A DNA stretch of 64,000 bases, from contig CAWAUY010000028.1 of NCBI GenBank assembly GCA_963785275.1, positions 1,916 through 65,915 on the forward strand. Direction: 5' to 3'. Source of the stretch: Candidatus Sulfomarinibacteraceae bacterium (GTDB lineage: Bacteria > Acidobacteriota > Thermoanaerobaculia > Thermoanaerobaculales > Sulfomarinibacteraceae). The translations under genes were made by a program, and so were the position numbers. Positions 7,510 to 62,207 of this stretch are shown here, one piece after another (the stretch's first letter is position 1; each line of letters opens with the position of its first letter). The notes beneath the pieces were generated by a model that was not told where the DNA came from, ran no database searches, and was given only the letters and a program-made list of their open reading frames with translations.

Positions 7510-7761
7510 GCTGCTGCCTCAGATGGACGATCGGTATCGGTGTGCGCGGGGACGCCGCGTGGGTGTTTTCGAGTGGAGCGCAGCGCGAACCGCGCGCAAA
7601 AACATGACGTGCAGCCGGGTTCTTCATCACCCCGGGGCGGTCTCACGATCAGGTTGGTTGTCGAGATTCACCGTGGGGTCAGTGTATCACCCCGGCGGGT
7701 ACCCGGTGTTCAGCCGCACGATGGGCAGGACCTCCGACGGGGCGCCATCGATGAACCGCTC

Positions 7762-9171: not shown

Positions 9172-9191
9172 GAAGTCCCCCGGTTTCCTTT

Positions 9192-13923: not shown

Positions 13924-13963
13924 GGGCTGCTCCTGATCTCGCTGGTCGAACTCGTCGAAGACC

Positions 13964-14992
13964 TCAGGGTTCGTCCGATACCTTGATAATGAGCTTGCCG
14001 TCGTGCGACCCGTCGAACAGCCGATTGATGTTTCGCGGTGCGGTCTCCAGGCCGTCGTAGACATCGACCTTGTACTTCAGGCGGCCCTCGGCGTACCACT
14101 CGCTGAGCTTGGCAACGGCCTCGCCGGTGCGGTCGAGATAGTCCATCACGATAAAGCCCTCGACCCTGGCCCGTCGGATGAGGACCATCGGAAAGGCAGA
14201 CGGGCCGGGCACCTTCTCGGCGGCGTTGTAGCCCGAAATCAGACCACAGACCGCGATTCTCGCGTAATTGTTGATCCAGGTGAGCTCGGCGTCGAGGATG
14301 TCACCGCCGACGTTTTCAAAGATCACGTCGATGCCGTCGGGGCAGTGTTTGTGGAGCGTGCGAACGACGTTCTCTGTTTTGTAGTTGATGGCGGCGTCGA
14401 AGCCGAGGTCGGCAGTCAGCCACGCGCACTTGGCATCGGAGCCTGCGATGCCCACCACCCGGCAGCCCATGATCTTGCCGATCTGGCCGACGATCGACCC
14501 GACTGCCCCGGCGGCGCCCGAGACGACGAGCGTTTCACCGGCCTTTGGTTTGCCGATGTCGAGCAGACCGAAGTAGGCGGTGAGACCGACGATCCCGAAC
14601 AGCCCGAGAAAAGCAGTCAGCGGGAGCGGACCGGGGTCGATGACCCGCTGGTCGCTGCCATCCGAGATCGCGTAGTCCTGCCAGCCGACGGTGCCGGAGA
14701 CCAGGTCACCCGGAGAAAAGCGGTCGGTGCGCGACTCTTCGACGACCCCCAGGGTGAGCCCGCGCATGACGTCGCCGATGCCGACCGGTTCCACATACGA
14801 CGGTCCCTCGCGGATCCAACCGCGGTTGGCGGGATCCAGCGAGAGATAGATGTTGCGGACCAGCACCTCGCCGTCGGCGAGCGCTCGGACCGGCTCCTCC
14901 ACCCACTCGAAATCACTGTCCTTGATCAGCCCCTCGGGTCTCGCGGCCAGCCGCCACTGTCGGTTGATGCGTTCTGCCATAGCGTGCTCCAT
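13964..14992 (-). CDS. NADP-dependent oxidoreductase, medium-chain reductase family (CurA/YncB / alkenal reductase-like)
   Basis: N-terminus NRQWRLAARPEG...DFEWVEEP, Rossmann motif VSGAAGAVGSIVGQIGKIMGCRVVGIAGS, C-terminus GKLIIKV. Confidence 0.88.
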   Translation of the reverse strand: MEHAMAERINRQWRLAARPEGLIKDSDFEWVEEPVRALADGEVLVRNIYLSLDPANRGWIREGPSYVEPVGIGDVMRGLTLGVVEESRTDRFSPGDLVSGTVGWQDYAISDGSDQRVIDPGPLPLTAFLGLFGIVGLTAYFGLLDIGKPKAGETLVVSGAAGAVGSIVGQIGKIMGCRVVGIAGSDAKCAWLTADLGFDAAINYKTENVVRTLHKHCPDGIDVIFENVGGDILDAELTWINNYARIAVCGLISGYNAAEKVPGPSAFPMVLIRRARVEGFIVMDYLDRTGEAVAKLSEWYAEGRLKYKVDVYDGLETAPRNINRLFDGSHDGKLIIKVSDEP

Positions 14993-15036
14993 TTCGTTCG
15001 CGCGGGTTCATCCAGGTTCCGGGATAGTATTGCCGT

Positions 15037-15921
15037 GTGAGGTACGAGGGTACAGTGTACCGTCCGCCATCCGAAGCGGGATCGCTGATCATCCAGGCAA
15101 CCGTCGGCTGTCCGCACAATCGGTGCGCCTTCTGTTCCATGTACAGCGACAAGAAATTCAAGAAGCGCCCCGTCGCCGAAGTCATCGAGGACCTCGATAT
15201 GGCCGTCGAGGCTCATGGCCCGGGGGTCCGCACGATCTTTCTCGCCGACGGCAACACGGCAGCGCTGCCGACCGCCACCCTGGTCGCGATCGGTGAGGCT
15301 GCCGCGGAGCGCTTTCCCAACCTCGAACGCATCACAGTCTACGGTTCGGCCAAGTTCCTCGCGGCCAAGAGCCGGGACGAGTGGCGGCAGATCGGTGGCG
15401 CCGGCATCACGAGAATCCACTCGGGTCTCGAGTCCGGCGATGCCGTGACCCTCGATCAGATCCACAAGGGCGTCAATCCGGAGGCAGCCGCAGAGGCCTT
15501 CAACCACGTCATGGCGGCCGACATCGAACTTTCGGTCTATCTGATGGTGGGGGTGGCGGGTCTCGAGCGCTCACGTGAGCACGCCGAGGGCTCGGCGGCG
15601 GTCCTCAACCGGGCGAGCCCGGACTTCATCCGTCTCCGAACCTTTGTGCCACGGCTCGGCACCGAGTGGTGCGAACGCTGGCAGCGCGGCGATCTCACCC
15701 TGCTCGGTCCCCACCAGGCGCTCGAGGAGACCAGACTGCTGGTGGAACGGCTCGAGGGGCCGACCATGCTGTTGTCCGACCACGTCACCAACTTCCTCGA
15801 TGTCAACGGACGCATCCCTGACGACAAAAGCATGATGTTGGCAACCATCGACGAGGCCCTCGAATGGACTGAGGAAAGCTTCAGACCGCCTACCGAGCGG
15901 CTCATCCATCTCGGATTATAG
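15037..15921 (+). CDS. Radical SAM protein (function unknown)
   Basis: CPHNRCAFCSMY matches the CxxxCxxC 4Fe-4S/SAM cluster motif near the N-terminus. The roughly 290-aa length fits a TIM-barrel. GTG start. Confidence 0.8.
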   Translation: MRYEGTVYRPPSEAGSLIIQATVGCPHNRCAFCSMYSDKKFKKRPVAEVIEDLDMAVEAHGPGVRTIFLADGNTAALPTATLVAIGEAAAERFPNLERITVYGSAKFLAAKSRDEWRQIGGAGITRIHSGLESGDAVTLDQIHKGVNPEAAAEAFNHVMAADIELSVYLMVGVAGLERSREHAEGSAAVLNRASPDFIRLRTFVPRLGTEWCERWQRGDLTLLGPHQALEETRLLVERLEGPTMLLSDHVTNFLDVNGRIPDDKSMMLATIDEALEWTEESFRPPTERLIHLGL

Positions 15922-17201: not shown

Positions 17202-17234
17202 ACCCGCGCCCGCGATCCGCGCGCCGAAGAGACC

Positions 17235-17268
17235 GAAAAACCGCGACGCTCGGCGTCGCGGTTTCTCT
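17235..17268. terminator. Bidirectional intrinsic terminator between convergent adh and icd
   Basis: Perfect 10-bp stem ACCGCGACGC(17240-17249), loop TCG, GCGTCGCGGT(17253-17262). Flanked by an A-run on the left (GAAAAA) and TTTCTCT on the right. Confidence 0.65.
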
Positions 17269-17294
17269 GTCTCACGATGGGCCGTCGAACCGAC

Positions 17295-33894: not shown

Positions 33895-34010
33895 GGAAAT
33901 TTTGAATGTTAAGTTTTGAGTTTTGAGTTTCCGGCTGCGACGACTCGGCAAGCCCGAGTGGAAATTCCAGGTCAATTCAAAATTCAAAATTCAAAATTGA
34001 AAATTGAACC
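33895..34010 (+). repeat. Heptamer-repeat hairpin element A (TTTTGAR x4 ... AATTSAA x5)
   Basis: The left arm holds TTTTGAA TGTTAAG TTTTGAG TTTTGAG (33900-33927). The right arm holds AATTCAA x3 plus AATTGAA x2 (33974-34008). 33897-33929 pairs with 33974-34006: 26 Watson-Crick pairs, 3 G.U and 4 mismatches. The apical GC mini-hairpin is ACTCGG/CCGAGT (33943-33959). The element starts 2 nt after the gdh stop. Confidence 0.7.
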
Positions 34011-34141: not shown

Positions 34142-34151
34142 ATTCAGTTTT

Positions 34152-34176
34152 AAAAACCGGCCCACGCCGGTTTTTT
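34152..34176. terminator. Bidirectional intrinsic terminator (tRNA-Gln / thiamine pyrophosphokinase gene)
   Basis: AAAAACCGGC-CCAC-GCCGGTTTTTT. An A-run and a T-run flank a 5-bp GC stem. Confidence 0.75.
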
Positions 34177-34816
34177 ATATTGAGGCGTCATGCTGTCGCA
34201 TGACGATGACGGCCCCGCCTTCGGCCCGGACGCGGACCTCGTTGTGCGTGGCCTCGTTCGAGATTGACGGTCGGTTGCCTGCGTCGACGGCAGCGTTGTC
34301 GATCGGCCAGCGGACGCCGCCGACAGTGACGCGGGTGGTGGGATCGTAGCTCCAGAATGACCACGTTTCGCCGGGAACCGCATCGAGTCGGACGTCGCCG
34401 CGGATCGCCAGCAGTCGGTGTGAGTCGCCCTCGAAGACGAGGCGAGGCCCGAGAGCCAATCGGGCCAACAAGCCGAGGTTGCCGAGGTCGTGGTCGACCC
34501 GGCCACCGGTTGCGGCGAGAACCGTGATTTCCTGCACTCGCAAATTTTCAAACGCGTACTCCAGGGCCTTGTCGAGGTCGGTACGGTCCTGGTCCGGCCT
34601 CTCGATCATCAGATCGTCTCCGAGCCACGAGCGGGTCGACTCGCTGATCGAATCGAGATCACCGACCACCGCGACCGGGCGCAGTCCGACCCGAGCGAGG
34701 TGATCGGCCCCGCCGTCGGCCGCCAGCAAGTGTTCGGCGCCTGCGGCGAGCGCTGTCAAACGCGGTGTCCAGCGGAGGGGAGCGTTTGCCACCAGAACTG
34801 TTCGTGGGGCTGCCAT
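34175..34816 (-). CDS. thiN: Thiamine pyrophosphokinase
   Basis: VAVVGDLDSI (GDxDS motif), LAATGGRVDHDLGN, and a C-terminal thiamine-binding beta-domain. 213 aa. Confidence 0.8.
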   Translation of the reverse strand: MAAPRTVLVANAPLRWTPRLTALAAGAEHLLAADGGADHLARVGLRPVAVVGDLDSISESTRSWLGDDLMIERPDQDRTDLDKALEYAFENLRVQEITVLAATGGRVDHDLGNLGLLARLALGPRLVFEGDSHRLLAIRGDVRLDAVPGETWSFWSYDPTTRVTVGGVRWPIDNAAVDAGNRPSISNEATHNEVRVRAEGGAVIVMRQHDASI

Positions 34817-36408: not shown

Positions 36409-36499
36409 AAATTTTGAATTCTCAATTCCCATCAACCTGCGCGGGCATCGAGGTGTGGGCCCGTCATTCAAAATTCAAAATTGAGAATTAAGAATTCAC
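36409..36499 (+). repeat. Heptamer-repeat hairpin element B (same family as element A)
   Basis: The left end AAATTTTGAATTCTCAATT (36409-36427) shares AAATTTTGAAT with element A. The right array is CATTCAA AATTCAA AATTGAG AATTAAG AATTCAC (36465-36499). 36410-36427 pairs with 36479-36496: 16 Watson-Crick pairs, 1 U.G and 1 mismatch (g36416/a36490), including 11 consecutive pairs. It is preceded by GGCCGGCCGGCC (36397-36408). The right arm overlaps the osmC stop codon. Confidence 0.65.
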
Positions 36500-37777: not shown

Positions 37778-40700
37778 TCACTGCCTCACTGCCTCGTCGA
37801 GCGGGATCGTCACCAGGTGGTTTTCCCACGTTTGTGAAGCCACCAGGCTTCCATCTGGCATGAGTGCCACGGCGGTGACTCCCGGCAAGCCGTCGCGCAG
37901 CAACCGGGCGGGCGTTTGACCGGTCGGATCGACGTGCCACACCTCGCCGGTGCTCGGCGCCGTAGCAGCCAGCATTCCCGAAGGCAGCACCGCGAGGTAG
38001 GCCTCCTGTTGGTCGCCGTTGCTCCAGCCGGGGACGTCCAATCGACGGACCACCTGGCCCGTCGCCGTGTCCACCAGAGCGACCGCTCCGTCGACCGGAA
38101 CCGCAGCGGCCAGCAGCCCCGCCGACCACGCCAGACCCGTCACCGGTCCGGGCAGGGTCGCGACGACGGTCTCGCGCCATTCGGGTGGATCGAATCGCAG
38201 CAGACGCCGGTTTCCGGTGTCGGCCACAAACAGGCTGCCGTCGCCCGACCACAGTGCGTCGCGCGGTCCAAAGAGGTTTTTGCCGATGATTTTGATGGTG
38301 CCGTCGGGTAGAAGAAGCTGAACACGCCCATTCCAGGTATCGGCGACGGCGAGAGTGCCGTCTGCGGCCAGGGCGAGCCCCGACGGCTCCTTGAAAGTCC
38401 CGGGCGCAGTCCCCTCCTCACCCAAGACATCGAGACAGGCGCCCTGCGCGCTGAACCATTGAATGCGGTGGTTGAGGGTGTCGGCGACCGCGATCCAGCC
38501 GCCCGGCGACACCGCGAGACCCCGGGGCTCGCGCAGGCCGTTTCCGGCCCTCCCGGAGCCGCGCTGCCAGGGCGACGGACAACCAGGAGCAATCGACTCG
38601 ATGATGAGGCCGTCGGATCGGATCAGCCACAGGCTGTGGCCGCGCCCCGCGACGGCGTTGATTTCTCCCGCTCCCGGGAGGATCTGGCGCCAGGGCAAAA
38701 GACCTCCGCCGCTGCGGTGGACGCCCTGGCTGTCGACGGCCACCAGGTCCTTGCCCTGCCAGGCCAGAGATCGGACGCCGTCGAGAGCTCCACCGACTGC
38801 CGCCGGCTGGTCGCCCCGTCCCAATCGCACACTCCGTCCGTCGCTCCAGGCGAGCCAGTCGTCGTTGGCCGCGGCAGCCGTCACGGCGTCCGAAAAGGCG
38901 CGGCTCCACGTGTCGCCGTCACGCCGCCAGACACCCTCGTCGCCCCACGCCCAGAGAACTTCGCCTGCGGCCAGCCCGAGGGCGCCGGAGAGCCGTCCCT
39001 TCGGCTGCCAATTCTCACCGGCGAATCGAAACACTCGTCCGTCCGCACATAGGGACCAGGCTCTGTCCTGCCACCGTACCGCTCCGAGAACGTCACACGG
39101 CGGGATGGGCAGGGTGCCCGATGGCCACCCGGCGAGGTCGAGCTCGATCACCTGTCCGTCGAGGAGCGTTGCGAGAGCTCCCTTGCCATCGAGGGCCAGG
39201 GATCGGACGACGTCGTGCCGGGTTTCCGGCAACTCGGCGATCACAGTCGCCCCTTTTGGAAGTTGCATCGCGGGCGCGATCGGCGTTCGGGGCGCGACCC
39301 CTTCGGTGACCCGATAGAGCATCGCGCCATCGTGTTCCGCCACTTTGACGAGACCGGGGACCTCCTGCATCGCGCCGTCTCCCGTGAGTTGGTACTGCTC
39401 GCGCTCGAGATCGGCGAGCACCACCCACTGCACATCGTACCGGTCGAGCACCGCTCTTCGAGCCCGGTGGTCTCGGCCGGAGTACAGGGTCTTCAGATCA
39501 TCGAAGCGCGCGCCGATCTCTTCGACCGACTGGCCTCGTTGCTGGAGGTGCCACTCCCAGCCGACGACGGTCGGCTGCCCGGTGTGCATGACCATCCTGG
39601 TGTGTTGGGAGTAGGAGGCACCGGCCGATTCCGCCACCACGTCGCCGGGACGGGCCACGCCCTGAAGAGCGCGAACGAGAAAGGCGGTCTGGCGATCGCG
39701 ACCTGCGAGGTACGCCTGGCCGTTCAGCGACGGACGCGGTGACGCGGTTCTCGGTTGGATCCAGCCCTGCGCGATGCCGAGCGGCAGGTTGACGGCGGCG
39801 ACGAGCTGGAGCGGCAACCAGACGGCAAATACCAGCCGGCGCCTCCCGCCTCGAGTCCGCAACAGAACGACGGCGAGGGCGAGAGCGAACACGACCCACA
39901 CGCCGTTGTAAATCTTGAAAATGGTGTTCATGCGATCGATCAAGGTGAATCGTTCGCAGGCCGCGATCGCGAGACAGCCGAGCGCCGCGAGGGCCCACGC
40001 CATGCGGTCGAGACGGAAGCGGCGCGAGATGGCGACGGTTGCAAAAACCGCTGCAACAGCAAGCGCCAGGGCAGCGGCCGAGGAGCCGAAAGCGAGACCG
40101 CCCCAGACTCCGAGACCTGCGGTGGGGAGGACGATCCACCAGCGTCGCCCGAGAAGAGCCATCCCAAGCACCGCCATCGGCACCATGAACAGACCGAAGT
40201 GCCGCAGCACAGCCCACGCCGGTGCGAAATCGGCGTGGGTGACGAAGAGACCTCTGCCTCCGGCGCCGGCGTTGATTCCGGCAACGAGTTCGTAGACAAA
40301 GGGGAGTGCGGCTGCCAGGCTGAGGGTGCCCGCCGCCGCAAGACGGCCGAGGCCCGCAATCGGTTTCCGCGCCGCCGCCACGGTCCCGACAAAGAGGACC
40401 GCCGTGAGGAGAAAGAGATCCCAGGGGTTGGTGGCCACAACGACTGCCGCTCCGATGCCGCACACGCAGGCCGCGGCCAACCACTGCCGGTTGCGCGCAC
40501 TGACGGTGATCCAGCCCCAGAACAGAGTCGCCAAAAAGACCGGCAGGGCGATGAAGTGTCCGTGGAGGTCAGCAAAGAGCGCAGTCCACAAGGGATACTC
40601 GGTGATGGCGAATCCCGGCACGACCCTCGATGTCGCCCACCAGAGATCGAAGATCTTGTTCTTCTGTGCGAGATCGAACAGCCACGGCCAGGCGAGGTTT

Positions 40701-43303
40701 CCGGTGAGCAGGACCAGCAGCGGCAGCAGGGCGGCGGCAAACCACCCGCGCCGGCGGGCCAGCACCAGTCCGAAAGCGGCGAGGACCGCCGCCCCGAAGG
40801 CCGGGATCGCGGCTGCCAACAGGTTGTAGCCGACACCGGCGCTGCAGCCGGTGACCAGAATTGGAAAGGCCGCGAGAACCTCGCCGAAGTAGTAGTAGTT
40901 GAGCTGCATCCCGGCCATCCACGGTTCCCCGGGCGGCCATGAGGGGGCGTTGAGAAAGGCGTTGAGGAACGCGAAGTCCATTGGCTTCTCGCCCCAGTAG
41001 ATGGCGGGGTTGAAGGCCCTGACGACGAGGAAGACGAGGCCGACCGCACCGGTGATGACGAGGACCTTGAAGATCCCGCTGCGCCGCCGCTTGAACGTGA
41101 CGGTGATTTCGTGGCGGCCCCGCCACGCAACGGCGGCGGCAACCCCGGCCAACCCGAGAAAGATCCACGAGGCGGTGGCGGCGTTGATGGACCAGATGCG
41201 AAGCTCGCTGCCGAGCCACAGGAGCCAGGCGGGCAGGATCCAGCCAGTGGTCACGGCCAGACCGACCCCGGCGTCCGGCAGGCGTTTCAGCAACGGCAGG
41301 AACAGCACCCAGGTCGAGAGACCGAGCACGCCGAGCACCAGGGTCCACACGCCGAGATCGATGATCTGGCGGGTGGCCGACGGCACCGCCGGGAGGCTCG
41401 GCACAGGGTTGATCTTAGTGCGCTCGAGGCCCGCAAAACCGAGCATGTCGAGGTCGGGCAGAGGACGAAGGACCCGTTCGACGAGTCGTTCGGGTGCGAC
41501 CGCCGCGACCCGCCGGAAGATCAACACCTGGGGAAAGTCGTAGTTGACGAAACTCTCGTCAGCGCCTTGAACCGGCCACTCAAGACCGAAGATGCGGGGT
41601 TCGCGGTGAACCCTGGTCAACAGTTCGAAGCCCGCTTCGCCGTCCAGCAGCAGTCGGTACAGCCGGGCCGTCAGTGGGAACCTCTGCGGATTGGCGAAGA
41701 CCGTGCGCAGGACCCGGTTTGAGGTGATGACGATCCAATCGGCACGGGCGAGTTCGGTCGCCCAGCGGAGAGCCTTGCCTTCGTCGTCAGGGAGGTCGTA
41801 TGAGGGCAACGAGAACCGCTCGACGGAACCGTCGACCCCGTCGAGCGCGATCGTCTCGTCCCAGCTCTCGAAGGCCACGACCTGGCCGTCCTCCAGCATC
41901 GGCACGAGCCACTCTGTCGCCGTCTTGTGGGGGTGCGGTTGTGCAAAGGCCCAGAGGTACGCGACGCCCCACAGCACCGTGCCCGCTGCAACCAGCCCAA
42001 TCGCCCGCCGCCGGAACGGCGTTCGCAGACGGCACAACCACCAGGCGGCGATCAGGGTCGCGGGGACCACGAGGGGCTCCCAGTAGCGGAGATACTTGAC
42101 CTGGAGCGTGCTCAGCCGGATGGCCATCGGAACGAGCCAGGCGAGCAGCAACAGCAGCAATACAGAGCCCCTGTTCCAACGCCCGGCGAACCACCGGCGC
42201 CACCGGGTGGCGAACCGTCGGCCCGCCGCGGCGGAAGCAGCGAGCACCGCCAACAGGAGCATCGGCCCCCAGCCCCACAGCGCGAGCTCGCGGAGCGGGT
42301 AGAGGACGGGGAGGGTGTTTGCGTAGACCCGAACGTACGGAAGATCGGCCTCCCCGAGGACCATCCGGATCTGTTCGCCCACCCCACGCACATAGGCGGG
42401 GTTGAGATCGGGGCCGGCGGCCACGACCGCCAGCGCGCGACCAAAGGCACCATCGCCGCCGAGATCAAACAGGGCTGCAACCTGGAATGCGGCAAAGACC
42501 GCGCAGATGGCGGCCGCGACCACCAGCGCCTGCCGCACGGTTCCTTCTCTTTTCGCCGCAAGGTGGAGGGCGATCGCAGCAGCGACGAGCGCCCCGATGA
42601 GGGGCATCGGCGGGCGTGCCTCCACGAAGGCCCAGGGCTGGCACAACCAGAACGTCGCGGCAAGAGCGGACGACGCCAGCATCGCCAGCCGCATGACCTC
42701 GACGACCCGCAGCCGGCCCGCGAGGAGAATGGCCAGGGCCAGTGGCAGGCCGAGCGGCAAGGAGGCGACCTTGACCGCCAACGACGCGCCGACGGCGATG
42801 CCGGCGGCGGCGGCAGCCGGGCCGCGACCGCCGGTCGCCAGCCAATAGCAGGTAGCCAGCGCGGCCATCACCCACACCGAGTGATGGGCCTCGACGGTCG
42901 AAAAATGCGACTGTTGGAGATCGAGGGGAACCCATGCGACCACGAACAGGAAAAGGTCCGCGGTCTGTCTTCCCCACGCTTTCCGGGCGACGACCCAGCC
43001 GAGGATGAGGGCCAGCATCGATGCCAACAGCGAGACCGCTCGCCCGCTTGCGGTCAGCCCCCTCAACGAGTCGCTCATGCCGAGGATGGCCGCCGCTGCT
43101 CTCGTTCCCTGAAAGTGGAGCGAGCCGTAGGCAAAGAACTGAGGGTCGGAAAACCACCCGTCGATCTTCTGGCCGACAAAACTCACCTGTCGTTCGTCGG
43201 GGTGCAGGGAGGACGACGAGTAGCCCGAGTCCCACCCCTGCAGCAGAAGGCGCAGGCCCAGTGCGAGGAAAAGAAGCAGCCACGTTCGCTTGCGCAACAT
43301 CAT
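37778..43303 (-). CDS. Giant polytopic membrane protein: GT-C-like N-terminal region, YYY (DUF2298/Chlor_Arch_YYY) domain, C-terminal NHL-repeat beta-propeller
   Basis: 1841 aa with dozens of predicted TM helices. Contains SLHPDERQVSF near the N-terminus and GEKPMDFAFLNAF...GEPWMAGMQLNYYYFGEV (YYY motif). The C-terminal roughly 500 aa hold NHL-like blades (PRGLAVSPGGWIAVADTLNHRIQWF, PSGLALAADGTLAVADTWNGRVQLL, GSLFVADTGNRRLLRF). Confidence 0.85.
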   Translation of the reverse strand: MMLRKRTWLLLFLALGLRLLLQGWDSGYSSSSLHPDERQVSFVGQKIDGWFSDPQFFAYGSLHFQGTRAAAAILGMSDSLRGLTASGRAVSLLASMLALILGWVVARKAWGRQTADLFLFVVAWVPLDLQQSHFSTVEAHHSVWVMAALATCYWLATGGRGPAAAAAGIAVGASLAVKVASLPLGLPLALAILLAGRLRVVEVMRLAMLASSALAATFWLCQPWAFVEARPPMPLIGALVAAAIALHLAAKREGTVRQALVVAAAICAVFAAFQVAALFDLGGDGAFGRALAVVAAGPDLNPAYVRGVGEQIRMVLGEADLPYVRVYANTLPVLYPLRELALWGWGPMLLLAVLAASAAAGRRFATRWRRWFAGRWNRGSVLLLLLLAWLVPMAIRLSTLQVKYLRYWEPLVVPATLIAAWWLCRLRTPFRRRAIGLVAAGTVLWGVAYLWAFAQPHPHKTATEWLVPMLEDGQVVAFESWDETIALDGVDGSVERFSLPSYDLPDDEGKALRWATELARADWIVITSNRVLRTVFANPQRFPLTARLYRLLLDGEAGFELLTRVHREPRIFGLEWPVQGADESFVNYDFPQVLIFRRVAAVAPERLVERVLRPLPDLDMLGFAGLERTKINPVPSLPAVPSATRQIIDLGVWTLVLGVLGLSTWVLFLPLLKRLPDAGVGLAVTTGWILPAWLLWLGSELRIWSINAATASWIFLGLAGVAAAVAWRGRHEITVTFKRRRSGIFKVLVITGAVGLVFLVVRAFNPAIYWGEKPMDFAFLNAFLNAPSWPPGEPWMAGMQLNYYYFGEVLAAFPILVTGCSAGVGYNLLAAAIPAFGAAVLAAFGLVLARRRGWFAAALLPLLVLLTGNLAWPWLFDLAQKNKIFDLWWATSRVVPGFAITEYPLWTALFADLHGHFIALPVFLATLFWGWITVSARNRQWLAAACVCGIGAAVVVATNPWDLFLLTAVLFVGTVAAARKPIAGLGRLAAAGTLSLAAALPFVYELVAGINAGAGGRGLFVTHADFAPAWAVLRHFGLFMVPMAVLGMALLGRRWWIVLPTAGLGVWGGLAFGSSAAALALAVAAVFATVAISRRFRLDRMAWALAALGCLAIAACERFTLIDRMNTIFKIYNGVWVVFALALAVVLLRTRGGRRRLVFAVWLPLQLVAAVNLPLGIAQGWIQPRTASPRPSLNGQAYLAGRDRQTAFLVRALQGVARPGDVVAESAGASYSQHTRMVMHTGQPTVVGWEWHLQQRGQSVEEIGARFDDLKTLYSGRDHRARRAVLDRYDVQWVVLADLEREQYQLTGDGAMQEVPGLVKVAEHDGAMLYRVTEGVAPRTPIAPAMQLPKGATVIAELPETRHDVVRSLALDGKGALATLLDGQVIELDLAGWPSGTLPIPPCDVLGAVRWQDRAWSLCADGRVFRFAGENWQPKGRLSGALGLAAGEVLWAWGDEGVWRRDGDTWSRAFSDAVTAAAANDDWLAWSDGRSVRLGRGDQPAAVGGALDGVRSLAWQGKDLVAVDSQGVHRSGGGLLPWRQILPGAGEINAVAGRGHSLWLIRSDGLIIESIAPGCPSPWQRGSGRAGNGLREPRGLAVSPGGWIAVADTLNHRIQWFSAQGACLDVLGEEGTAPGTFKEPSGLALAADGTLAVADTWNGRVQLLLPDGTIKIIGKNLFGPRDALWSGDGSLFVADTGNRRLLRFDPPEWRETVVATLPGPVTGLAWSAGLLAAAVPVDGAVALVDTATGQVVRRLDVPGWSNGDQQEAYLAVLPSGMLAATAPSTGEVWHVDPTGQTPARLLRDGLPGVTAVALMPDGSLVASQTWENHLVTIPLDEAVRQ

Positions 43304-43379
43304 TTCAACACTAGCGGATGATCCTCGAAATCGTCCACCGTTTGCAAAGTTTTAACCTGCCTTTGTCGATCAGGAGAGG

Positions 43380-44282
43380 TCACGATGTGCGGTGGCAGAT
43401 GAAGCGGGCCAGCGCCGCGAGCTCGCCGTCGGGTCCTTCGAGGCTTCGGGCACGGTTTACCAGCTGCTCCTCCAGCAGATCGAGTCGCTGTTGCGCCGCG
43501 GCGAGGCCGTACAGAGTGACATACGTGAGCTTGCCGCTTTGGGCGTCCTTTCCGGGCGATTTGCCGAGGTCGTCGGCCGAGGCGGTGGCGTCGAGAATGT
43601 CATCCGCGACCTGAAAGGCGAGACCGAGATCGCGACCGAACAGGGCGAAATTCGCTCGGTCCGGCGGTTTGGCCCGGGCAAGCAGTGCGCCGAGCTCCAC
43701 CGACGCCTGCAGAAGACACCCGGTCTTGTGGCGGTGGATCCGCTCGAGCTGTTGTTCGAGCGCGGTCCGGTCGCTCGCGCTTCGGCCGGTGCTTTCAATG
43801 TCCTCCGCCTGCCCGCCGACCATCCCCCGGGAGGACACCGCTTCGGCAACCAGCGCCACCGCGTCGGCGCGGATATCCGTCCAGGATGCGCCTTCGGGGT
43901 GGCGCGCCAGGAGGAGCAGTCCTTCGGCGAGCAGGGCATCGCCGACCAGGATTGCGGTCGCCTCGTCAAAGGCGATGTGGACCGTCGGGCGACCCCGGCG
44001 CAGCACGTCGTCGTCCATCGCGGGGAGATCGTCGTGAACCAGGGAGTAGGTGTGGATGAGTTCGAGACCGCACGCCGCTTCCGTCACCGCATCGGGGTCT
44101 CCACCGGCTGCCCGGCAGGTGAGCCGAGCGAGGATCGGACGGATTCTCTTGCCACCGGCGAAGACCGCGTAGGCCATCGCTTCGTGGAGGCGCCGGGGCC
44201 ACGAGTCGGGGTTTCCAACGAGGCGTTGCAGGGCCGCCTCGACCACCACACGCTCGTCCGAAAGCAGCCGTTCGACGTTCAC
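43380..44282 (-). CDS. ispA: Polyprenyl (farnesyl/geranylgeranyl) diphosphate synthase
   Basis: FARM LVHDDLPAMDDDVLRRG and SARM FQVADDILD. The GTG start at 44280-44282 overlaps the xseB stop (GTGA). The ORF-track start at 44381 is an extension. Confidence 0.9.
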   Translation of the reverse strand: MNVERLLSDERVVVEAALQRLVGNPDSWPRRLHEAMAYAVFAGGKRIRPILARLTCRAAGGDPDAVTEAACGLELIHTYSLVHDDLPAMDDDVLRRGRPTVHIAFDEATAILVGDALLAEGLLLLARHPEGASWTDIRADAVALVAEAVSSRGMVGGQAEDIESTGRSASDRTALEQQLERIHRHKTGCLLQASVELGALLARAKPPDRANFALFGRDLGLAFQVADDILDATASADDLGKSPGKDAQSGKLTYVTLYGLAAAQQRLDLLEEQLVNRARSLEGPDGELAALARFICHRTS

Positions 44283-53609: not shown

Positions 53610-53822
53610 ATGCCGACTGGTGTCATAGTTCGTGACAATGAATCCTTCGAACAGGCGCTCCGCCGCTTCAAAAGGAAGTGCGAAAAAGCCGGCATCCTCT
53701 CTGAGGTCAAAAGGCGCCGCTTTTACGAAAAGCCTTCCGAGCGCCGCAAACGGGAAATGATCCAGGCCCGAAAGAAGATGCTTCGCAAGATGGCCAAGCA
53801 GCGTCGTGCCGGCCTGCTGTAG
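53610..53822 (+). CDS. rpsU: 30S ribosomal protein S21
   Basis: [39 protein letters not shown]. 70 aa. RBS is GGGGGTGA. Confidence 0.95.
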
Positions 53823-53830
53823 CTTCTACG

Positions 53831-56200
53831 GTGGACCGCTCGATCGCTTCTGACGTCGAGTTCGACAAAGTACTTCAGTTGATCGCGGCCCACGCCCGCA
53901 GCGGCGTGGGCCGTATTTTTCTCGAGCGTTCGGTTGTCGAACCTCATCCAGGTGGCGACCCCGACGATGCCGCCCGTCTGGTGCTCGCCCTGACCGAGCT
54001 GATCGAGGATGATGAGACGCTCTCATTCGCCGGGGTCGACGACGCACTGCCGTGGTTGGAGGACGATGCGCCGCCGCCGTCCGAACCGCGCGATCTCCTC
54101 GCCCTGCTCGGTCTCGCAAAGAGGGTGGCGGCCGTTCGCCGCCGGTTCGGCGCCGCCGCGAGCGATCGCCTGCGCGCCCTCGCGGAGAAGCTCCCCGACA
54201 CGACCGAACTCGTCGCCGCGGTGTCGCCGCGCCTCAACGCTGACGGAACGGTCGCGGACTCCGCGTCGTCGGAGCTGCAACGTCTGCGCCGCGAGGTCGG
54301 GCGGGCACGCACCGATGTGACGGCCGAACTTGACGGCATCCGGCGCGCCCACGGCGATGTGGTGACCGATGCGCCGCCGACGCTGCGCCGCGATCGCTAC
54401 TGCCTGCCGGTCAGGTCGTCGGCCAGAGGGCAGCTTCCGGGTCTCCTGCTGGATGTCTCGGCCCGTGGTGCAACCGCCTTTGTCGAACCGCTGGCCGTAG
54501 TCGAGCTCAACAATCGGTTGACCGCCGCGTCTGCGGGTGAGCGGCGCGAGATCCAGCGGATCCTGGCCGAGATCGCCCGTCAATTCGCCGCGGCGCACGA
54601 CGATCTGGCTGCGGCCGTTGAGGTGCTCGCCGAAATCGACGCTGTCCAGGCCAAAGTTTTGTTCGGGCGTCGAGTCGATGGCCGGGTCGTCCTGCCGGCG
54701 GCGACATCCGAACTGGTTTTGCGCGGCGCCCGCCACCCGCTGCTCGACGAGCGTTTGCATGCTCTGAGGGTCGATGTTTTCGGGGACATGGAACAGCGCG
54801 ACCCCGGGCATCGGGTCGTGCCGTTGGATTTCGCGATGCCGGAGGGCATCCGGACCCTCGTGGTCTCGGGGCCGAACGCGGGCGGCAAGACCGTCGTCCT
54901 CAAGACCATCGGTCTCATGGCATTGATGAGTCAGCATGGAATTCCGCTGCCTGTTGATGAGGGCACGGCCATCCCGGACTTCTCCCGTCTGTGGTGCCAT
55001 ATCGGTGACGAGCAGAACGTTGCGGCGGATCTGTCGACTTTTTCCGGTTCTATGGCGGCCACCGCCCGTCTCCTCGACGACGCGGACGACACCACACTGG
55101 TGTTGTTCGACGAGCTCGGCGCCGGCACCGATCCACTCGAGGGGGCTGCGATCGGATGCGCCCTTCTCGAAGAGTTGTCAAACCGCGGCGCGGTCACAGT
55201 GGTCTCGACCCACCTCGCGGCGATCGCCTTGTCGGCGAATTCGGCGAACGGCATGGAGAACGCGGCGGTGGAGTACGACGAAGACACCCAGCGTCCCACC
55301 TACGTTCTCGCCGTAGGCCGGCCCGGGCGATCGCGGGCGTTGGAAATCGCAGACCGCGTGGGAGTGTCGCACGCGGTGCTCGAACGAGCGCGAGAGCTTC
55401 TCGGCGGCGATCACCTCGAACTCGACCGCTGGCTGCGTCGCCTCGAAAATCTAGAGATGCAGCTCGAGGCCGAGCGCTCCGAGGTCGCGCTGCTGCGAGC
55501 CGAGACCGACGGATACCAACAGGAGGCCAGACGCGAACTGCAGAAACTCGAGAACGAACGCCTTGCCCTCCCGGAGGTGTTGGCCGCAGAACGTGACGAG
55601 CTGCGCCGACGCGCCAAGAAGAAGCTCGACGCCGCCATCACGCGTCTCCAGAGTGCGGTGGAGGAACACGAGGCGCTCGGCAGGAGGCGATTGCAGAAGC
55701 TGCGCGACGAGGCTCTCGACCTCGATGATCGTCAGGTGTCGCCAACTCCGAGCGCCGGCGGTCTCGAGGTCGGCGCGCGGGTCCGGCTTGCAGTCGGTGG
55801 CAAGGGCGTGCTGCGCGAGATCCGCGGATCGCAGGCCCGGGTGGAAGTGGCCGGCAAGAAACTGTGGGTGCCGGTGGGCGAGCTCCAGGTGGTTGCGGGG
55901 CCGCCCCCCGCGCAGCAAGCGGCCGTGAGGGTGGAGACCGTCGACCCGTCGGACCGCGAACTCAAGCTGATTGGTCTCGACCGCGAACACGCCCGCGAGG
56001 AGCTCGAGCGCTTTCTCGATCGGGCCTCGACCTCGGGTCTGCCCGCGGTGCGGGTGGTGCACGGCCACGGGACGGGGACCCTCCGTCGACTGGTCACCGA
56101 GATCTGTCGTTCGCACCCTTCCGTCCGCTCGTTCCGCCACCCGCCTCAGCACCGCGGCGGCACGGGGGCCACTGAAGTGGAGCTGGATCACGGCTCGTGA
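53831..56200 (+). CDS. mutS2: Endonuclease MutS2 (MutS domain plus C-terminal Smr domain)
   Basis: Walker A VVSGPNAGGKTV, LFDELGAGTDP, and the Smr domain LIGLDREHAREELERFLDRA...VRVVHGHGTGTLR. GTG start. Confidence 0.92.
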   Translation: MDRSIASDVEFDKVLQLIAAHARSGVGRIFLERSVVEPHPGGDPDDAARLVLALTELIEDDETLSFAGVDDALPWLEDDAPPPSEPRDLLALLGLAKRVAAVRRRFGAAASDRLRALAEKLPDTTELVAAVSPRLNADGTVADSASSELQRLRREVGRARTDVTAELDGIRRAHGDVVTDAPPTLRRDRYCLPVRSSARGQLPGLLLDVSARGATAFVEPLAVVELNNRLTAASAGERREIQRILAEIARQFAAAHDDLAAAVEVLAEIDAVQAKVLFGRRVDGRVVLPAATSELVLRGARHPLLDERLHALRVDVFGDMEQRDPGHRVVPLDFAMPEGIRTLVVSGPNAGGKTVVLKTIGLMALMSQHGIPLPVDEGTAIPDFSRLWCHIGDEQNVAADLSTFSGSMAATARLLDDADDTTLVLFDELGAGTDPLEGAAIGCALLEELSNRGAVTVVSTHLAAIALSANSANGMENAAVEYDEDTQRPTYVLAVGRPGRSRALEIADRVGVSHAVLERARELLGGDHLELDRWLRRLENLEMQLEAERSEVALLRAETDGYQQEARRELQKLENERLALPEVLAAERDELRRRAKKKLDAAITRLQSAVEEHEALGRRRLQKLRDEALDLDDRQVSPTPSAGGLEVGARVRLAVGGKGVLREIRGSQARVEVAGKKLWVPVGELQVVAGPPPAQQAAVRVETVDPSDRELKLIGLDREHAREELERFLDRASTSGLPAVRVVHGHGTGTLRRLVTEICRSHPSVRSFRHPPQHRGGTGATEVELDHGS

Positions 56201-56243
56201 AACCAAGAATCAACTGATAGGTTGCGGTCGGTATGAATCAGAT

Positions 56244-56418
56244 ATTTGATCTTGGATTTTGGATATTTGTTCTTACGGTGCTCTACGCTTGGCCTGCTTG
56301 TGGTGGCGATTACGATTTGTTGACATCCAACATCCAACATCCTGTCAACACTCCGCGATCTTACCATTCCGAGAAGCAGTCTGGCAAGAGTATCCAACAT
56401 CCAACATCCAACATCCGT
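56244..56418 (+). repeat. Heptamer-repeat element C: one (nTTGGAT) array and two complementary (CATCCAA) arrays between mutS2 and dnaG
   Basis: L array: ATTTGAT CTTGGAT TTTGGAT ATTTGTT (56244-56271). R1 array: CATCCAA CATCCAA CATCC (56324-56342), sitting in the loop of the 8-bp hairpin TGTTGACA/TGTCAACA (56318-56325/56343-56350). R2 array: TATCCAA CATCCAA CATCCAA CATCCGT (56391-56418). Confidence 0.7.
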
Positions 56419-56442
56419 ACCTTTATGTAAGAATGACCCCTC

Positions 56443-58200
56443 ATGGTAGACGCTGACCTGACCCGCGATGTCATTTCGCGCGTGCGCGAGGCCGCCGATA
56501 TGGTGGATGTGGCGGGCGAGTATGTGAGGCTGAAGAAGCGGGGTCGGACGTGGGAGGGGTTGTGCCCGTTCCACGAAGAAAAGACCCCTTCGTTCTCGGT
56601 GGATGCGGAAAAAGGCCTCTACTACTGTTTCGGCTGCCATCAGGGCGGCGACATTTTCAAGTTCCTGATGCAGCTCGAAAACCTCAATTTCCCCGAGGCT
56701 GTCGAGCGGTTGGCGCGCCGCTACGGGGTGACGCTGCCGCCCCGAAGCCCCGAAGCCAGACAACGGCGCGACGCCGGCGACCGCCAGCGCGTCCTCCTCG
56801 AGGAGGCGCAGCGTTTCTTCGCCGAGTGCCTGGAACAACCGATGGGTCGCGAAGCGCAGACCGAACTCGATCGCCGGGGTTTTGCAAAGGAGAGTTGGCA
56901 GGCGTTTGGCTTCGGATTTGCTCCGGACGGCTGGCGCGGCCTCCTGGACCATCTGACCAGGCGGCATCCCGAAGGCGCTCTCGTTGAGGCCGGTCTCGCC
57001 GTGCGCCCTGAAAGCGGGACCGCGCCGTACGACCGATTTCGCAACCGCCTGACCTTTCCTGTGCGCAGCGGCGACGGCGCGTTGATCGCATTCGGCGGCC
57101 GTGTCCTCGGCGACGGCGAACCCAAGTATCTGAACAGCCCGGAGACCCAGATCTTCCGCAAACGATCGACGCTCTTCTGTCTGGATCGGGCGCGGCGGGC
57201 GATCGCCGACCAGGCGACGGTGCTGGTCGTCGAAGGCTACTTTGATTGTCTCTCCCTGCACCGGGTCGGAATCTCAAACGCCGTGGCGACTCTGGGCACC
57301 GCGCTGACGACCGATCACGCGCGGCTTCTCAAACGGCGGCTCGGACCCGAAGGCCTGGCTCTGCTCTGCTACGACGCTGACAATGCAGGGCGCCGTGCTG
57401 CAGCGTCCGGCGCGCAGACCCTCCTCGAAACCGGAGTCGACGTGGCCGTTATCGTCCTGCCGATGGGAGAAGACCCCGACGATGTCATTCGTGAACGCGG
57501 GGTCGAGTCGTTTCGCGAGACCCTCGATCACCCGACGCCTCTGCTCGAGTTCCTGCTCGGCGACCTCCCGCCCGAACCTGCCCGCCGCCGGCGCGCGGGT
57601 TTGCAGCTGGCGCCTCTTGTGTGCTCGGCATCCGATCCTGCCGTGCGCCAGAATCTGATCGAGGAGCTGGCTCGGCAACTGTATCTTCGGCCTAGAGATG
57701 TGGAAGAGCATGGAAACCGGGGGCGGCGCGGTCCGGTCGCCCCGTCGAGTGCTGTGCCCAAGCGGCAGGCTCTGCCGTCTGGCGAACGGGAGCTGTTGCG
57801 GATGGTCATCGAGGGTTCACAGGAGTGGCGCCGTCGGATCCTGGACGCCGTCGACCTGGACCTGATCGAGGACCCGCGGGTGAAAGCCATTCTCGATGCT
57901 GCTCGCGAGACTGACGGGTCTGCGGAGAGCGCCGCCGATTTTGTGGGGGACCTGGTCCGGCGAACCGAGCAACCGGACCTCGGTTCGCTGGTCGCGGAGC
58001 TGAGCACGGCGCCGATGCCCGAGGTGACCGAAGAGACCATTCGCCGCCAGCTGACCCTCCTCTTGGAACACCAGGCCAGGGAGCTCGCGCGGCGGTTGGC
58101 GCCGCTGATTGCCGAGGCCGAGGCGCGAGGTGACCTGGCTGAATTGGACAGATTATTGGGGGAAAAAGCCAGATTACGGCAGAAAAATGTAGAAATCTGA
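56443..58200 (+). CDS. dnaG: DNA primase
   Basis: Zinc finger CPFHEEKTPSFSVDAEKGLYYCFGCHQGGD and the TOPRIM motif VVEGYFDCLS...DADNAGRRAA. Confidence 0.95.
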   Translation: MVDADLTRDVISRVREAADMVDVAGEYVRLKKRGRTWEGLCPFHEEKTPSFSVDAEKGLYYCFGCHQGGDIFKFLMQLENLNFPEAVERLARRYGVTLPPRSPEARQRRDAGDRQRVLLEEAQRFFAECLEQPMGREAQTELDRRGFAKESWQAFGFGFAPDGWRGLLDHLTRRHPEGALVEAGLAVRPESGTAPYDRFRNRLTFPVRSGDGALIAFGGRVLGDGEPKYLNSPETQIFRKRSTLFCLDRARRAIADQATVLVVEGYFDCLSLHRVGISNAVATLGTALTTDHARLLKRRLGPEGLALLCYDADNAGRRAAASGAQTLLETGVDVAVIVLPMGEDPDDVIRERGVESFRETLDHPTPLLEFLLGDLPPEPARRRRAGLQLAPLVCSASDPAVRQNLIEELARQLYLRPRDVEEHGNRGRRGPVAPSSAVPKRQALPSGERELLRMVIEGSQEWRRRILDAVDLDLIEDPRVKAILDAARETDGSAESAADFVGDLVRRTEQPDLGSLVAELSTAPMPEVTEETIRRQLTLLLEHQARELARRLAPLIAEAEARGDLAELDRLLGEKARLRQKNVEI

Positions 58201-58471
58201 CATTTTCTGCTCCACAGGGGTTGCCAAAACCGGTTTTGAGACCCATATTCCCTTGGATGGTGAGTGGCCCTGCGCACAGTGCCTGTGCTGAGAACCGACG
58301 CCCACCTTGAACACACCTTGATGGACGGAATTTTTGACTGACCCCTTTTGGGAATGGAATGCCTGCGCGAAGTGCTGTTCACTGCGCAGTGCCTCGGGCA
58401 GTGTCGAACGACCGGTGAACCCCTCGTATGTATCGGTTTGAGCAATTCTCCCTCGTGAATGGAGGCGGCTT

Positions 58472-60187
<1,716 letters not shown>

Positions 60188-60194
60188 TCTCGGA

Positions 60195-60296
60195 GGCTTG
60201 GGGCCTGGGGCTTGGGGCTTGAGATCCGAAATCAAGGCCAAACCTCAAGCCTCGAGCCCCAGGCCCCAAGCCCATCTACCGGCTTGCTGGTAGATG
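60195..60296 (+). repeat. Heptamer-repeat hairpin element D (CTTGGGG-type / CCCCAAG-type arms, 29-bp stem) plus a second 8-bp hairpin
   Basis: 60195-60223 pairs with 60244-60272 over 29 consecutive pairs: 27 Watson-Crick and 2 G.U. The loop is 20 nt. The second hairpin is CATCTACC(60273-60280)/GGTAGATG(60289-60296). The element starts 8 nt after the rpoD stop and ends 23 nt before tRNA-Met. Confidence 0.8.
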
Positions 60297-60318
60297 ACGT
60301 CCGCGGTACCATGTGCCG

Positions 60319-60391
60319 GGGCCCATAGCTCAGCGGTCAGAGCCGCCGGCTCATAACCGGTCGGTCCCAGGTTCGAATCCTGGTGGGCCCA
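60319..60391 (+). tRNA. tRNA with CAT anticodon (elongator Met, or Ile2 if lysidine-modified); CCA not encoded
   Basis: GGGCCCATAGCTCAGCGGTCAGAGCCGCCGGCTCATAACCGGTCGGTCCCAGGTTCGAATCCTGGTGGGCCCA folds as a cloverleaf with a 7-bp acceptor stem and anticodon loop CTCATAA. The discriminator A is followed by TGG. Confidence 0.9.
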
Positions 60392-61901: not shown

Positions 61902-62012
61902 TTCGACCGAGCGAACGCGGCACTCCGCCCTTTGTCATTTCGACCGAGCGGAGCGAGTGGAGAAATCTCTTGGGAGAGACGCCTCCACTCCAGGCAAAGG
62001 TCTCGCGATGGC
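61902..62012. repeat. Intergenic repeat: duplicated TTCGACCGAGCG motif and an imperfect hairpin
   Basis: TTCGACCGAGCG occurs at 61902-61913 and 61939-61950. GTCATTTCGACCGAGCGGAGCGAGTGGAGAAATCTC starts at 61934. The stem GAGTGGAG(61955-61962)/CTCCACTC(61983-61990) has an inner TCTC/GAGA pairing. Confidence 0.45.
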
Positions 62013-62207
62013 GGCGCGGCTTTCAGAACGCGCTTGCTCGCGAGGAGCCACCTTCAACATTGTTGGCCCGAATCACCCTGCCGGCGTGAAAGCCCGAGCG
62101 TCCAACAATATTGAAAATGGCACCTCCGCCGCGCGGATTTTGCCTTTCTCCTTGCCCCGGGCACTACTTTGTGAAAAAATTCTCAGCTGACGGAGTGAGG
62201 GGGATCG

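Follow-up and report, generated by a model that had tools for sequence, protein, structure and literature searches.

A 29-bp hairpin of facing heptanucleotide repeats behind rpoD in a Sulfomarinibacteraceae bacterium, a member of a class of intergenic palindromes found across its lineage

Arrays of 7-nucleotide (nt) repeats are known from several bacterial groups. The heptamers of Xanthomonas (GGGAATC) and Nostoc (GGGGA(C/T)T, the STRR1 unit) are tandem repeats with a preference for about four copies and a strongly intergenic location; their G-rich strand is the coding strand, 0 to 50 bp past the stop codon or overlapping it, and 70 to 75 loci per genome are inverted convergent pairs able to form stem-loops (Rehm et al. 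2015, PMC4692102). These repeats are conserved in position and variable in length, have no link to mobile elements, and are sites at which transcripts often end; for the GGGNATC repeats of both genera, the formation of G-quadruplexes (G4) has been proposed (PMC4692102). The TAACTGA repeats of Beggiatoaceae, Cyanobacteria, and Bacteroidetes are intergenic and are present in 2 to 6 copies at many loci (MacGregor 2015, PMC4679880). As summarized in these two articles, Mrazek et al. (2007) found that heptamers dominate the long simple-sequence repeats (SSRs) of prokaryotes, mostly in noncoding DNA and in large, G+C-rich genomes, and polymerase slippage with a preferred 7-nt register has been proposed as the cause of this predominance; a survey of long SSRs in prokaryotes is also available (PMC4060949). 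A literature search for heptamer repeats in Acidobacteria found no paper. Here, we analyze element D, a heptamer palindrome that follows the rpoD gene in a 64,000-nt stretch of DNA (the window) from a Candidatus Sulfomarinibacteraceae bacterium of the phylum Acidobacteriota. We report that intergenic palindromes made of convergent 7-nt arrays recur throughout the lineage and that element D is one of them. The element belongs to a kind of bacterial repeat that has already been described; the lineage and the pattern of unit turnover are new.

Element D begins 8 nt past the TGA stop codon of rpoD (60185-60187). Its parts, and the second hairpin next to it, are as follows (loci of other genomes are designated by L and a number).

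60195..60223, plus strand: 5' arm of element D, four G/T-rich heptamer units (GGCTTGG, GGCCTGG, GGCTTGG, GGCTTGA, then G)
60224..60243, plus strand: loop of element D, 20 nt, with the 5' end GAGAT(C/T)CGA common to L162 and L173
60244..60272, plus strand: 3' arm of element D, four C/A-rich units (CTCAAGC, CTCGAGC, CCCAGGC, CCCAAGC, then C)
60273..60296, plus strand: second hairpin, with a 10-bp stem and a 4-nt loop in the fold

The two arms are mirror complements of each other, the two G.U positions included. An earlier note on this DNA had read the units in another register, as CTTGGGG, CCTGGGG, CTTGGGG, and CTTGAGA on the left (60197-60224) and as CCTCAAG, CCTCGAG, CCCCAGG, and CCCCAAG on the right (60243-60270), and both sets are found in the sequence at these coordinates. 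Positions 60195-60223 pair with 60244-60272 over 29 bp without a gap, as the note had stated, by 27 Watson-Crick and 2 G.U pairs (93% complementary according to the repeat finder); T60213.G60254 and G60215.T60252 are the sole non-Watson-Crick pairs of the stem. The second hairpin had been given a stem of 8 bp, which the fold corrects to 10 bp. Folding of 60188-60300 yielded -82.0 kcal/mol for the sense RNA and -43.4 ± 3.7 kcal/mol for shuffled controls (z = -10.4), and 0 of 200 shuffles folded as well. The antisense RNA reached -78.1 kcal/mol (z = -8.5), which is 3.9 kcal/mol worse than the sense fold, and contains an internal loop at the two A.C positions; the helix of the window is therefore perfect only in the sense RNA, as had been claimed. 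The two strands of element D also fold as single-stranded DNA, with -42.6 and -39.5 kcal/mol (z = -9.0 and -7.0). Tandem Repeats Finder reported period 7 in both arms, with 3.9 and 5.1 copies, and an autocorrelation scan concurred. A period scan of the whole window confined period-7 arrays to four intergenic elements, A to D. Three GGGG tracts and one GG are present in element D. No T-run stands behind either hairpin, which agrees with the earlier observation that a U-tract is absent, and neither the scan tool nor a separate scan of our own found an intrinsic terminator at element D, the loop of which measures 20 nt. At the gathering threshold of Rfam, only tRNAs passed in the window and no family was detected at element D; at the E-value threshold, the element gave only sub-threshold matches resembling microRNA precursors, on both strands, as is generic for a long hairpin. 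Element D is thus a real 29-bp hairpin of two facing 7-nt repeat arrays, located between the rpoD stop codon and the promoter of a tRNA gene.

These features place element D next to the inverted pairs of Xanthomonas and Nostoc: it has period 7, at least 3 to 4 copies, an intergenic location, and a stop-proximal, G-rich arm on the coding strand that converges with its partner, and the right-arm unit CCCCAAG is one base off the Nostoc unit CCCCAAT. Like an intrinsic terminator, it is a G+C-rich hairpin directly past a stop codon, with a second hairpin behind it. It differs from the intrinsic terminators, variants of which without a U-tract or with hairpin clusters are described (PMC8355165), by its 29-bp stem, its 20-nt loop, and the absence of a U-tract.

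The genes on either side of the element and the promoter of the downstream gene are the following.

58472..60187, plus strand: rpoD, primary sigma factor, with Pfam Sigma70 regions 1.1, 1.2, 2, 3, and 4
60284..60312, plus strand: putative sigma-70 promoter of tRNA-Met, TTGCTG (60284-60289), a 17-nt spacer, and TACCAT (60307-60312)
60319-60391, plus strand: tRNA-Met(CAT), the downstream neighbor of element D

rpoD is the final gene of an rpsU-mutS2-dnaG-rpoD run whose synteny is kept in relatives. The run at 53610-60187 corresponds to the classical macromolecular-synthesis operon with mutS2 (Smr) inserted behind rpsU, an arrangement found throughout the clade. The tRNA gene starts at 60319, as had been noted. 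It had also been described as lacking a recognizable promoter and, as one possibility, as co-transcribed with rpoD and then processed out; the former statement is wrong and the latter unsupported, since a conserved promoter of the sigma-70 type lies between the hairpin and the tRNA. The block CTTGCTGG-N15-TAC(T/C)AT-N6-tRNA is invariant across nine genomes, in contrast to the hypervariable DNA on its upstream side. The promoter spacer keeps a length of 17 nt throughout and varies in sequence, and the second hexamer is TACTAT in relatives; fixed hexamers and a fixed spacer length combined with a varying spacer sequence are the classical signature of a promoter. It scored 8 of 12, under the threshold of the scan tool. 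The promoter ends 6 nt before the tRNA, so that its transcript would have nearly no 5' leader. The loop and the 3' arm of the second hairpin overlap the -35 hexamer, and this hairpin is present in only part of the clade, being absent in L163, L169, L171, and L172. Element D occupies an unconstrained stretch that runs from the rpoD stop codon to the conserved tRNA-Met promoter.

For the orthologous comparison, we used ten relatives with an rpoD 91 to 96% identical, obtained by a protein search and contig look-ups; the search with rpoD returned many proteins of 81 to 96% identity, some of them named Thermoanaerobaculales. Pattern-based rpoD scans of GTDB genomes and JGI metagenomes recovered only distant relatives of at most 65% identity, the best of which was a Thermoanaerobaculaceae genome bin; unsuited to an orthologous comparison, these loci served as a phylum-wide background. 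A look-up of proteins identical to the rpoD product of the window found no record. The loci of the relatives are syntenic (rpsU-mutS2-dnaG-rpoD-tRNA-Met-Zn-ribbon-YggS). Inverted period-7 arrays, which the earlier note had proposed to look for in related genomes, were present in the rpoD-tRNA spacer of 10 of 10 relatives and belonged to five unit families:

Window, L162, L163, L164, and L173: GGCTTG(G/A)
L170: GGGGCTC, with (CCCCGAG)x7
L171: GGTTCAG, with CTGAACC
L172 and L169: AACGTT(C/G), self-complementary
L161 (302-nt spacer): ATGGGCT, with (CCCATAG)x7

The left arm of element D aligns unit by unit with the left arms of L173, L162, L163, and L164. The right arm varies from 2 to 5 units among the five GGCTTG-type genomes and from 2 to 7 across the relatives. 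Per-pair covariation counts on the five GGCTTG-type orthologs were dropped, since right arms that differ by whole units make them unreliable, and a matrix of self- and cross-pairing was used instead. In 7 of 10 genomes, the best partner of the left arm was the right arm from the same genome; the mean arm-pairing score was 17.1 for self and 9.7 for cross combinations, and each of the four unit families unlike that of the window paired with itself only. A change of unit on one arm is thus accompanied by the same change on the other, and the preference for the own arm indicates that some mirror constraint or mirror copying exists. The arms also expand independently in 7-nt steps, as follows from the perfect 7-copy runs of L170 and L161, which stand opposite decayed partner arms. 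Both observations agree with slippage and mirror copying, which had been proposed earlier as the generator of such elements. All 10 orthologous spacers folded better than shuffles (z = -2.1 to -8.9), the stem of the window being by far the most perfect. One of these loci, L173, is either degraded or from an error-rich long-read assembly: at 5395-9640 and 13565-15039, mutS2, dnaG, and other genes are fragmented, and a pair of DDE transposase genes lies downstream of the YggS-like gene.

Element D has three sister elements in the window, all intergenic.

33898..34009, plus strand: element A, inverted AT-rich heptamer arrays TTTTGAG and AATTCAA
36410..36498, plus strand: element B, inverted arrays with units of the family seen in A, between the convergent PhoH-like and OsmC genes
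56241..56418, plus strand: element C, in the mutS2-dnaG spacer, with TTGGAT(T/A) units upstream and two ACATCCA/ATCCAAC arrays downstream

Element A begins 5 nt past the gdh stop codon and ends right before the tRNA-Gln promoter TTGACC-16-TATAGT. With D upstream of the tRNA-Met promoter and A upstream of that of tRNA-Gln, the heptamer palindromes lie in the interval from a stop codon to the promoter of the following gene. Element B, 14 nt past a stop codon, is the sole structure between its two convergent genes, and the long-range pairing of element C is weak. The same sites carry arrays in other genomes. L174 and L177, whose PhoH-like gene is 86 to 87% identical, have different units in the inverted heptamer arrays of sites A and B (AATTGAG/AATTCTC and AATTAGG/ATTCCTA), and further spacers of these two loci carry more arrays; at site C, other heptamer hairpins occur in L161, L162, L171, and L172. 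The element overlaps the stop codon in L161 and L174; in the mutS2-dnaG spacer of L161, the stop TGA itself opens the first unit, TGAGCTA.

Units are common to neighboring sites of one genome in three cases: AATTCAA at A and B of the window (33898-34009 and 36410-36498), AATTGAG/AATTAAG at A and B of L174 (2923-3040 and 5514-5611), and CCCATAG/ATGGGCT at C and D of L161 (7852-8061 and 11880-12055). To judge from these sequences, sharing by neighboring sites combined with differences across genomes suggests an exchange or copying between nearby arrays. The claim that the elements do not derive from a single mobile sequence accordingly stands insofar as units differ by site and by genome, and has to be qualified by the sharing between neighbors.

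Several conclusions on the class can be derived from the pooled loci. (i) The period is specific. In 192 kb of the clade, we counted 30 intergenic arrays of period 7, and 0, 1, 5, 0, 0, and 0 of periods 5, 6, 8, 9, 10, and 11, respectively. A second count, over 1.8 Mb of rpoD loci that are mostly acidobacterial, considered hairpins whose arms are periodic; period 7 ranked first (30), ahead of period 9 (18). (ii) The location is intergenic. The density of period-7 arrays was 1.34 per kb of spacer and 0.03 per kb of gene, an approximately 46-fold difference. These counts use the gene calls delivered with the loci; our own gene finder over-extended starts and mislabeled some spacer elements as genic. 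Five arrays were nominally genic, three of which result from the mutS2 frame of L162 running into an array. That frame (L162:7755-7933) continues into the ATGGGCT/CCCATAG arrays of the mutS2-dnaG spacer, and the mutS2 call measures 846 amino acids (aa), compared with the usual length of about 789 aa. (iii) The sequence of the unit is free. There were 104 distinct canonical units across 59 loci and three unit families inside the window, where A and B share one; no core motif common to the 104 units was found, the top 4-mers being weak and varied, and AT-rich units are present in a genome of 63% G+C. Together with the different units at orthologous sites, this bears out the earlier view that what the elements have in common is the 7-nt periodic mirror construction and not a sequence. 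(iv) The arms have a polarity. The 5' arm had more G than C and was G+T rich in 22 of 25 period-7 hairpins (p = 0.0002), as well as in 15 of 17 when only the distant loci were considered (p = 0.002); control hairpins were split 226:220. The G/T-rich version is consequently found on the coding strand just past a stop codon and the C/A-rich version on the coding strand before the next start. The convergent orientation of the Xanthomonas pairs follows the same rule. Heptamer hairpins were also seen beyond the Acidobacteriota, namely, in L057 (Syntrophobacteraceae), with CTGGATG units 57 to 130 nt past the rpoD stop codon, and in L073 (9065-9231), with GGTTGTC/GGTTCAC units.

Seen against the described repeats, the class shares with those of Xanthomonas and Nostoc a conserved position with a variable copy number (10 of 10 genomes at rpoD, and sites A and B in L174 and L177). 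It differs from them as follows: Xanthomonas and Nostoc have one genome-wide consensus unit (GGGNATC), whereas each site has its own unit here, AT-rich ones included; units are replaced, on both arms jointly, between relatives with 91 to 96% identical rpoD; a shared G4 potential is lacking, the four-G-tract pattern not being found; the phylum is the Acidobacteriota, and most copies are paired into hairpins; and the sharing of units by neighboring sites is distinctive. The TAACTGA repeats are similar in forming intergenic heptamer arrays at many loci, but they have one fixed unit, are nearly all direct (1 inverted in 170), and stand just upstream of starts (PMC4679880), in contrast to the diverse units, inverted arrays, and positions just past stop codons reported here. 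The repeats of Mrazek et al., as they are presented in the two articles citing them, are direct arrays, so that inverted pairing, joint arm change, and polarity fall outside that description.

Our preferred explanation is that element D is a slippage-driven SSR palindrome whose arms are kept complementary and which probably serves as an operon-end stem-loop; we hold this explanation, in which the function is inferred, with about even confidence. The variation among relatives suggests that replication slippage would lengthen, shorten, and homogenize the arrays in steps of 7 nt. Drift of the repeat unit would be fast, and complementarity would be kept because changes are mirrored between the arms, by templated quasi-palindrome correction (fold-back or template switching), by selection for the stem, or by both. 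Template-switch correction of quasi-palindromes is established in Escherichia coli, as reported from the Lovett laboratory (PMC7202029). It is a mutational mechanism and not an element family, and in the form of the Ripley model it could explain both the mirrored unit variants and the joint unit switch. The palindrome would then form the 3' end of the rpsU-mutS2-dnaG-rpoD mRNA, where it may block both read-through into the tRNA promoter and 3' exonucleases; the stability of the stem and the G/T-rich-arm-first polarity would matter, and the sequence would be irrelevant. Intergenic stem-loops can stabilize mRNA selectively (e.g., PMC4423207). Two further results are consistent with a role at the operon end: a canonical hairpin with a T-run within 150 nt past the rpoD stop codon was found at 74 of 156 distant loci (47%), whereas 0 of 10 clade members had a convincing canonical terminator after rpoD, and the position of element D matches the terminator site of the more distant Acidobacteriota.

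Another set of observations weighs against a maintained operon-end stem-loop. (i) The quality of the stem is uneven among close relatives, from the perfect 29 bp of the window to about 10 to 14 bp, and the arms may carry unequal numbers of units; neither would be expected if a defined stem were under strong selection. (ii) The same window contains canonical bidirectional terminators (A-tract, G+C stem, T-tract) at 17229-17273 and 34144-34183, one of them between convergent genes and the other after tRNA-Gln. Because the genome uses such terminators and element D has no U-tract, a role in termination would be noncanonical. (iii) The G.U wobbles of pooled period-7 hairpins have no strand bias. 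(iv) The deficit of elements in divergent spacers was not significant (1 of 15 versus 15 of 82, p = 0.45). (v) Persistence and complementarity could come from the mutational process alone.

A purely neutral origin is a serious rival, which we regard as possible though on balance unlikely. Element D would be a by-product of self-perpetuating heptanucleotide microsatellites that fill constraint-free intergenic DNA, and its hairpin would have no function; the complementarity of the arms would come solely from fold-back or template-switch mutagenesis, and the polarity from the purging of harmful orientations. Points (i) to (iii) above, that is, the wide variation of stems and arm lengths, the missing U-tract, and the unbiased wobbles, speak for such an origin, and the perfect one-sided expansions, the huge diversity of units, and the mutS2 frame of L162 that simply enters an array fit it as well. 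It accounts less readily for the significantly structured spacer retained in 10 of 10 relatives, for a clade devoid of any other convincing terminator after rpoD, and for element B as the lone structure between two convergent genes. Furthermore, repeats of this type in Xanthomonas coincide with transcript starts or stops more frequently than control repeats do.

If the operon-end stem-loop is nevertheless correct for element D, it may be extended to the whole group. In the Acidobacteriota, including the Thermoanaerobaculales, self-renewing heptamer palindromes might then be a routine operon-end signal without a U-tract, kept by a mutational engine of 7-nt slippage, fold-back copying, and exchange between neighbors. 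We offer this extension as a speculation that is more likely wrong than right by a wide measure. Were it true, the unit would drift freely, while the stem, the position at the stop codon, and the G/T-first polarity would persist.

The earlier note had instead explained the element by selection on the sense RNA, with a U-tract-independent terminator or an RNase III-type site freeing the rpoD mRNA from a promoterless, co-transcribed tRNA; we consider this improbable. RNase III needs roughly two helical turns of duplex, taken here as an unbroken RNA helix of at least about 20 bp, and the 29 uninterrupted bp of the window exceed this length. Both non-Watson-Crick pairs of the window are G.U in the sense RNA, the sense fold of 60188-60300 is the better one, and a slight advantage of the sense fold is seen in the two nearest relatives as well (L163, -43.5 versus -40.5 kcal/mol; L162, -35.2 versus -34.0 kcal/mol). 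However, two G.U pairs of two that favor the sense strand are a one-in-four chance event. The asymmetry disappeared with more copies, the outcome that the note itself had named beforehand as refuting: wobbles in pooled co-directional period-7 hairpins numbered 9 in sense and 9 in antisense. For spacer cores that end at the tRNA promoter, folding was more stable in antisense in 8 of 10 orthologous spacers, that of the window included (-68.1 sense versus -69.9 antisense), and the sense fold was favored in L163 and L162 only. The polarity is of no help here: read on the opposite strand, the 3' arm becomes a 5' arm, so that the polarity is the same on both strands and cannot mark the functional one. 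The tRNA, moreover, is preceded by its own promoter, which is conserved. Conservation of an RNase III site finds no support, since the long perfect helix is confined to the window and the stems of the relatives measure 13 to 18 bp or are interrupted. Nothing points to sense-strand tuning of element D. For annotation, the consequence is one of caution: long perfect hairpins in these genomes are repeat driven, and a few G.U pairs are not proof of a strand-specific RNA.

Even less probable is an origin as a mobile element, either a miniature inverted-repeat transposable element (MITE) or a repetitive extragenic palindromic (REP)-like sequence moved by a REP-associated tyrosine transposase (RAYT), or a site acting at the DNA level by protein binding or cruciform formation. 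The units common to neighboring sites of one genome and the strong single-stranded DNA hairpin on both strands would fit it. Yet units that differ by site and genome argue against a sequence-specific protein or transposase, and no Rfam family was found at element D. The MITE was rejected on three counts: A and B have unrelated loops, no direct repeats were seen on either side of D, and the orthologous sites are occupied in all relatives, with no pattern of presence and absence. REP sequences are transcribed as stem-loops that lack a U-tract, arrest 3' exonucleases, and mark off segments of operons, and element D would resemble them and the bacterial interspersed mosaic elements (BIMEs) as a 3' stem-loop of this kind if the functional explanation is right. 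Unlike here, REPs are conserved in sequence as a family, measure about 35 nt, owe their spread to RAYT transposases, are nonperiodic, and have a unit that is stable among close relatives; within the 64-kb window, to which the REP/BIME search was limited, only A and B were alike, and units vary between sites and genomes. Least credible of all is a G4 formed past the stop codon by the G-rich arm of the coding strand and regulating transcription or translation, which we rejected since the G-tracts are not conserved (GGCTTGAGGCCTGGGGCTTGTGG breaks the G-runs in L162, and L173 has no GGGG): strand, position 8 nt past the stop codon, and three GGGG tracts plus GG match the class proposed for the GGGNATC repeats, but there are three full G-tracts and not four, pairing with the complementary arm, which is 20 nt away, would prevail over a G4, and elements A, B, and C have no G-tracts.

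Heptamers are the commonest long simple repeats in bacteria. For their study, the present lineage offers a natural series in which the unit was replaced several times at the same sites among genomes with 91 to 96% identical rpoD. The series separates the maintained traits (stem, position, and polarity) from the free one (sequence), and it makes testable whether complementarity is due to selection or to templated copying and whether such stems substitute for canonical terminators.

A number of minor observations were made in addition. The 307-nt spacer between the YggS-like and the M20 peptidase genes of the window contains two nonperiodic hairpins (61955-61990, 16 bp; 62042-62126, 25 bp with a 35-nt loop), and the orthologous spacer of L164 carries a GAAATCC heptamer array (5371-5399). 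Downstream of the tRNA in L014, there are GGGATCA arrays that resemble the Xanthomonas unit. Finally, the AT skew at 40001-44000 of the window is +0.22, far above the remainder; this region lies inside a minus-strand open reading frame of 1841 aa (37778-43303), the homolog of which in L177 matches DUF2298.

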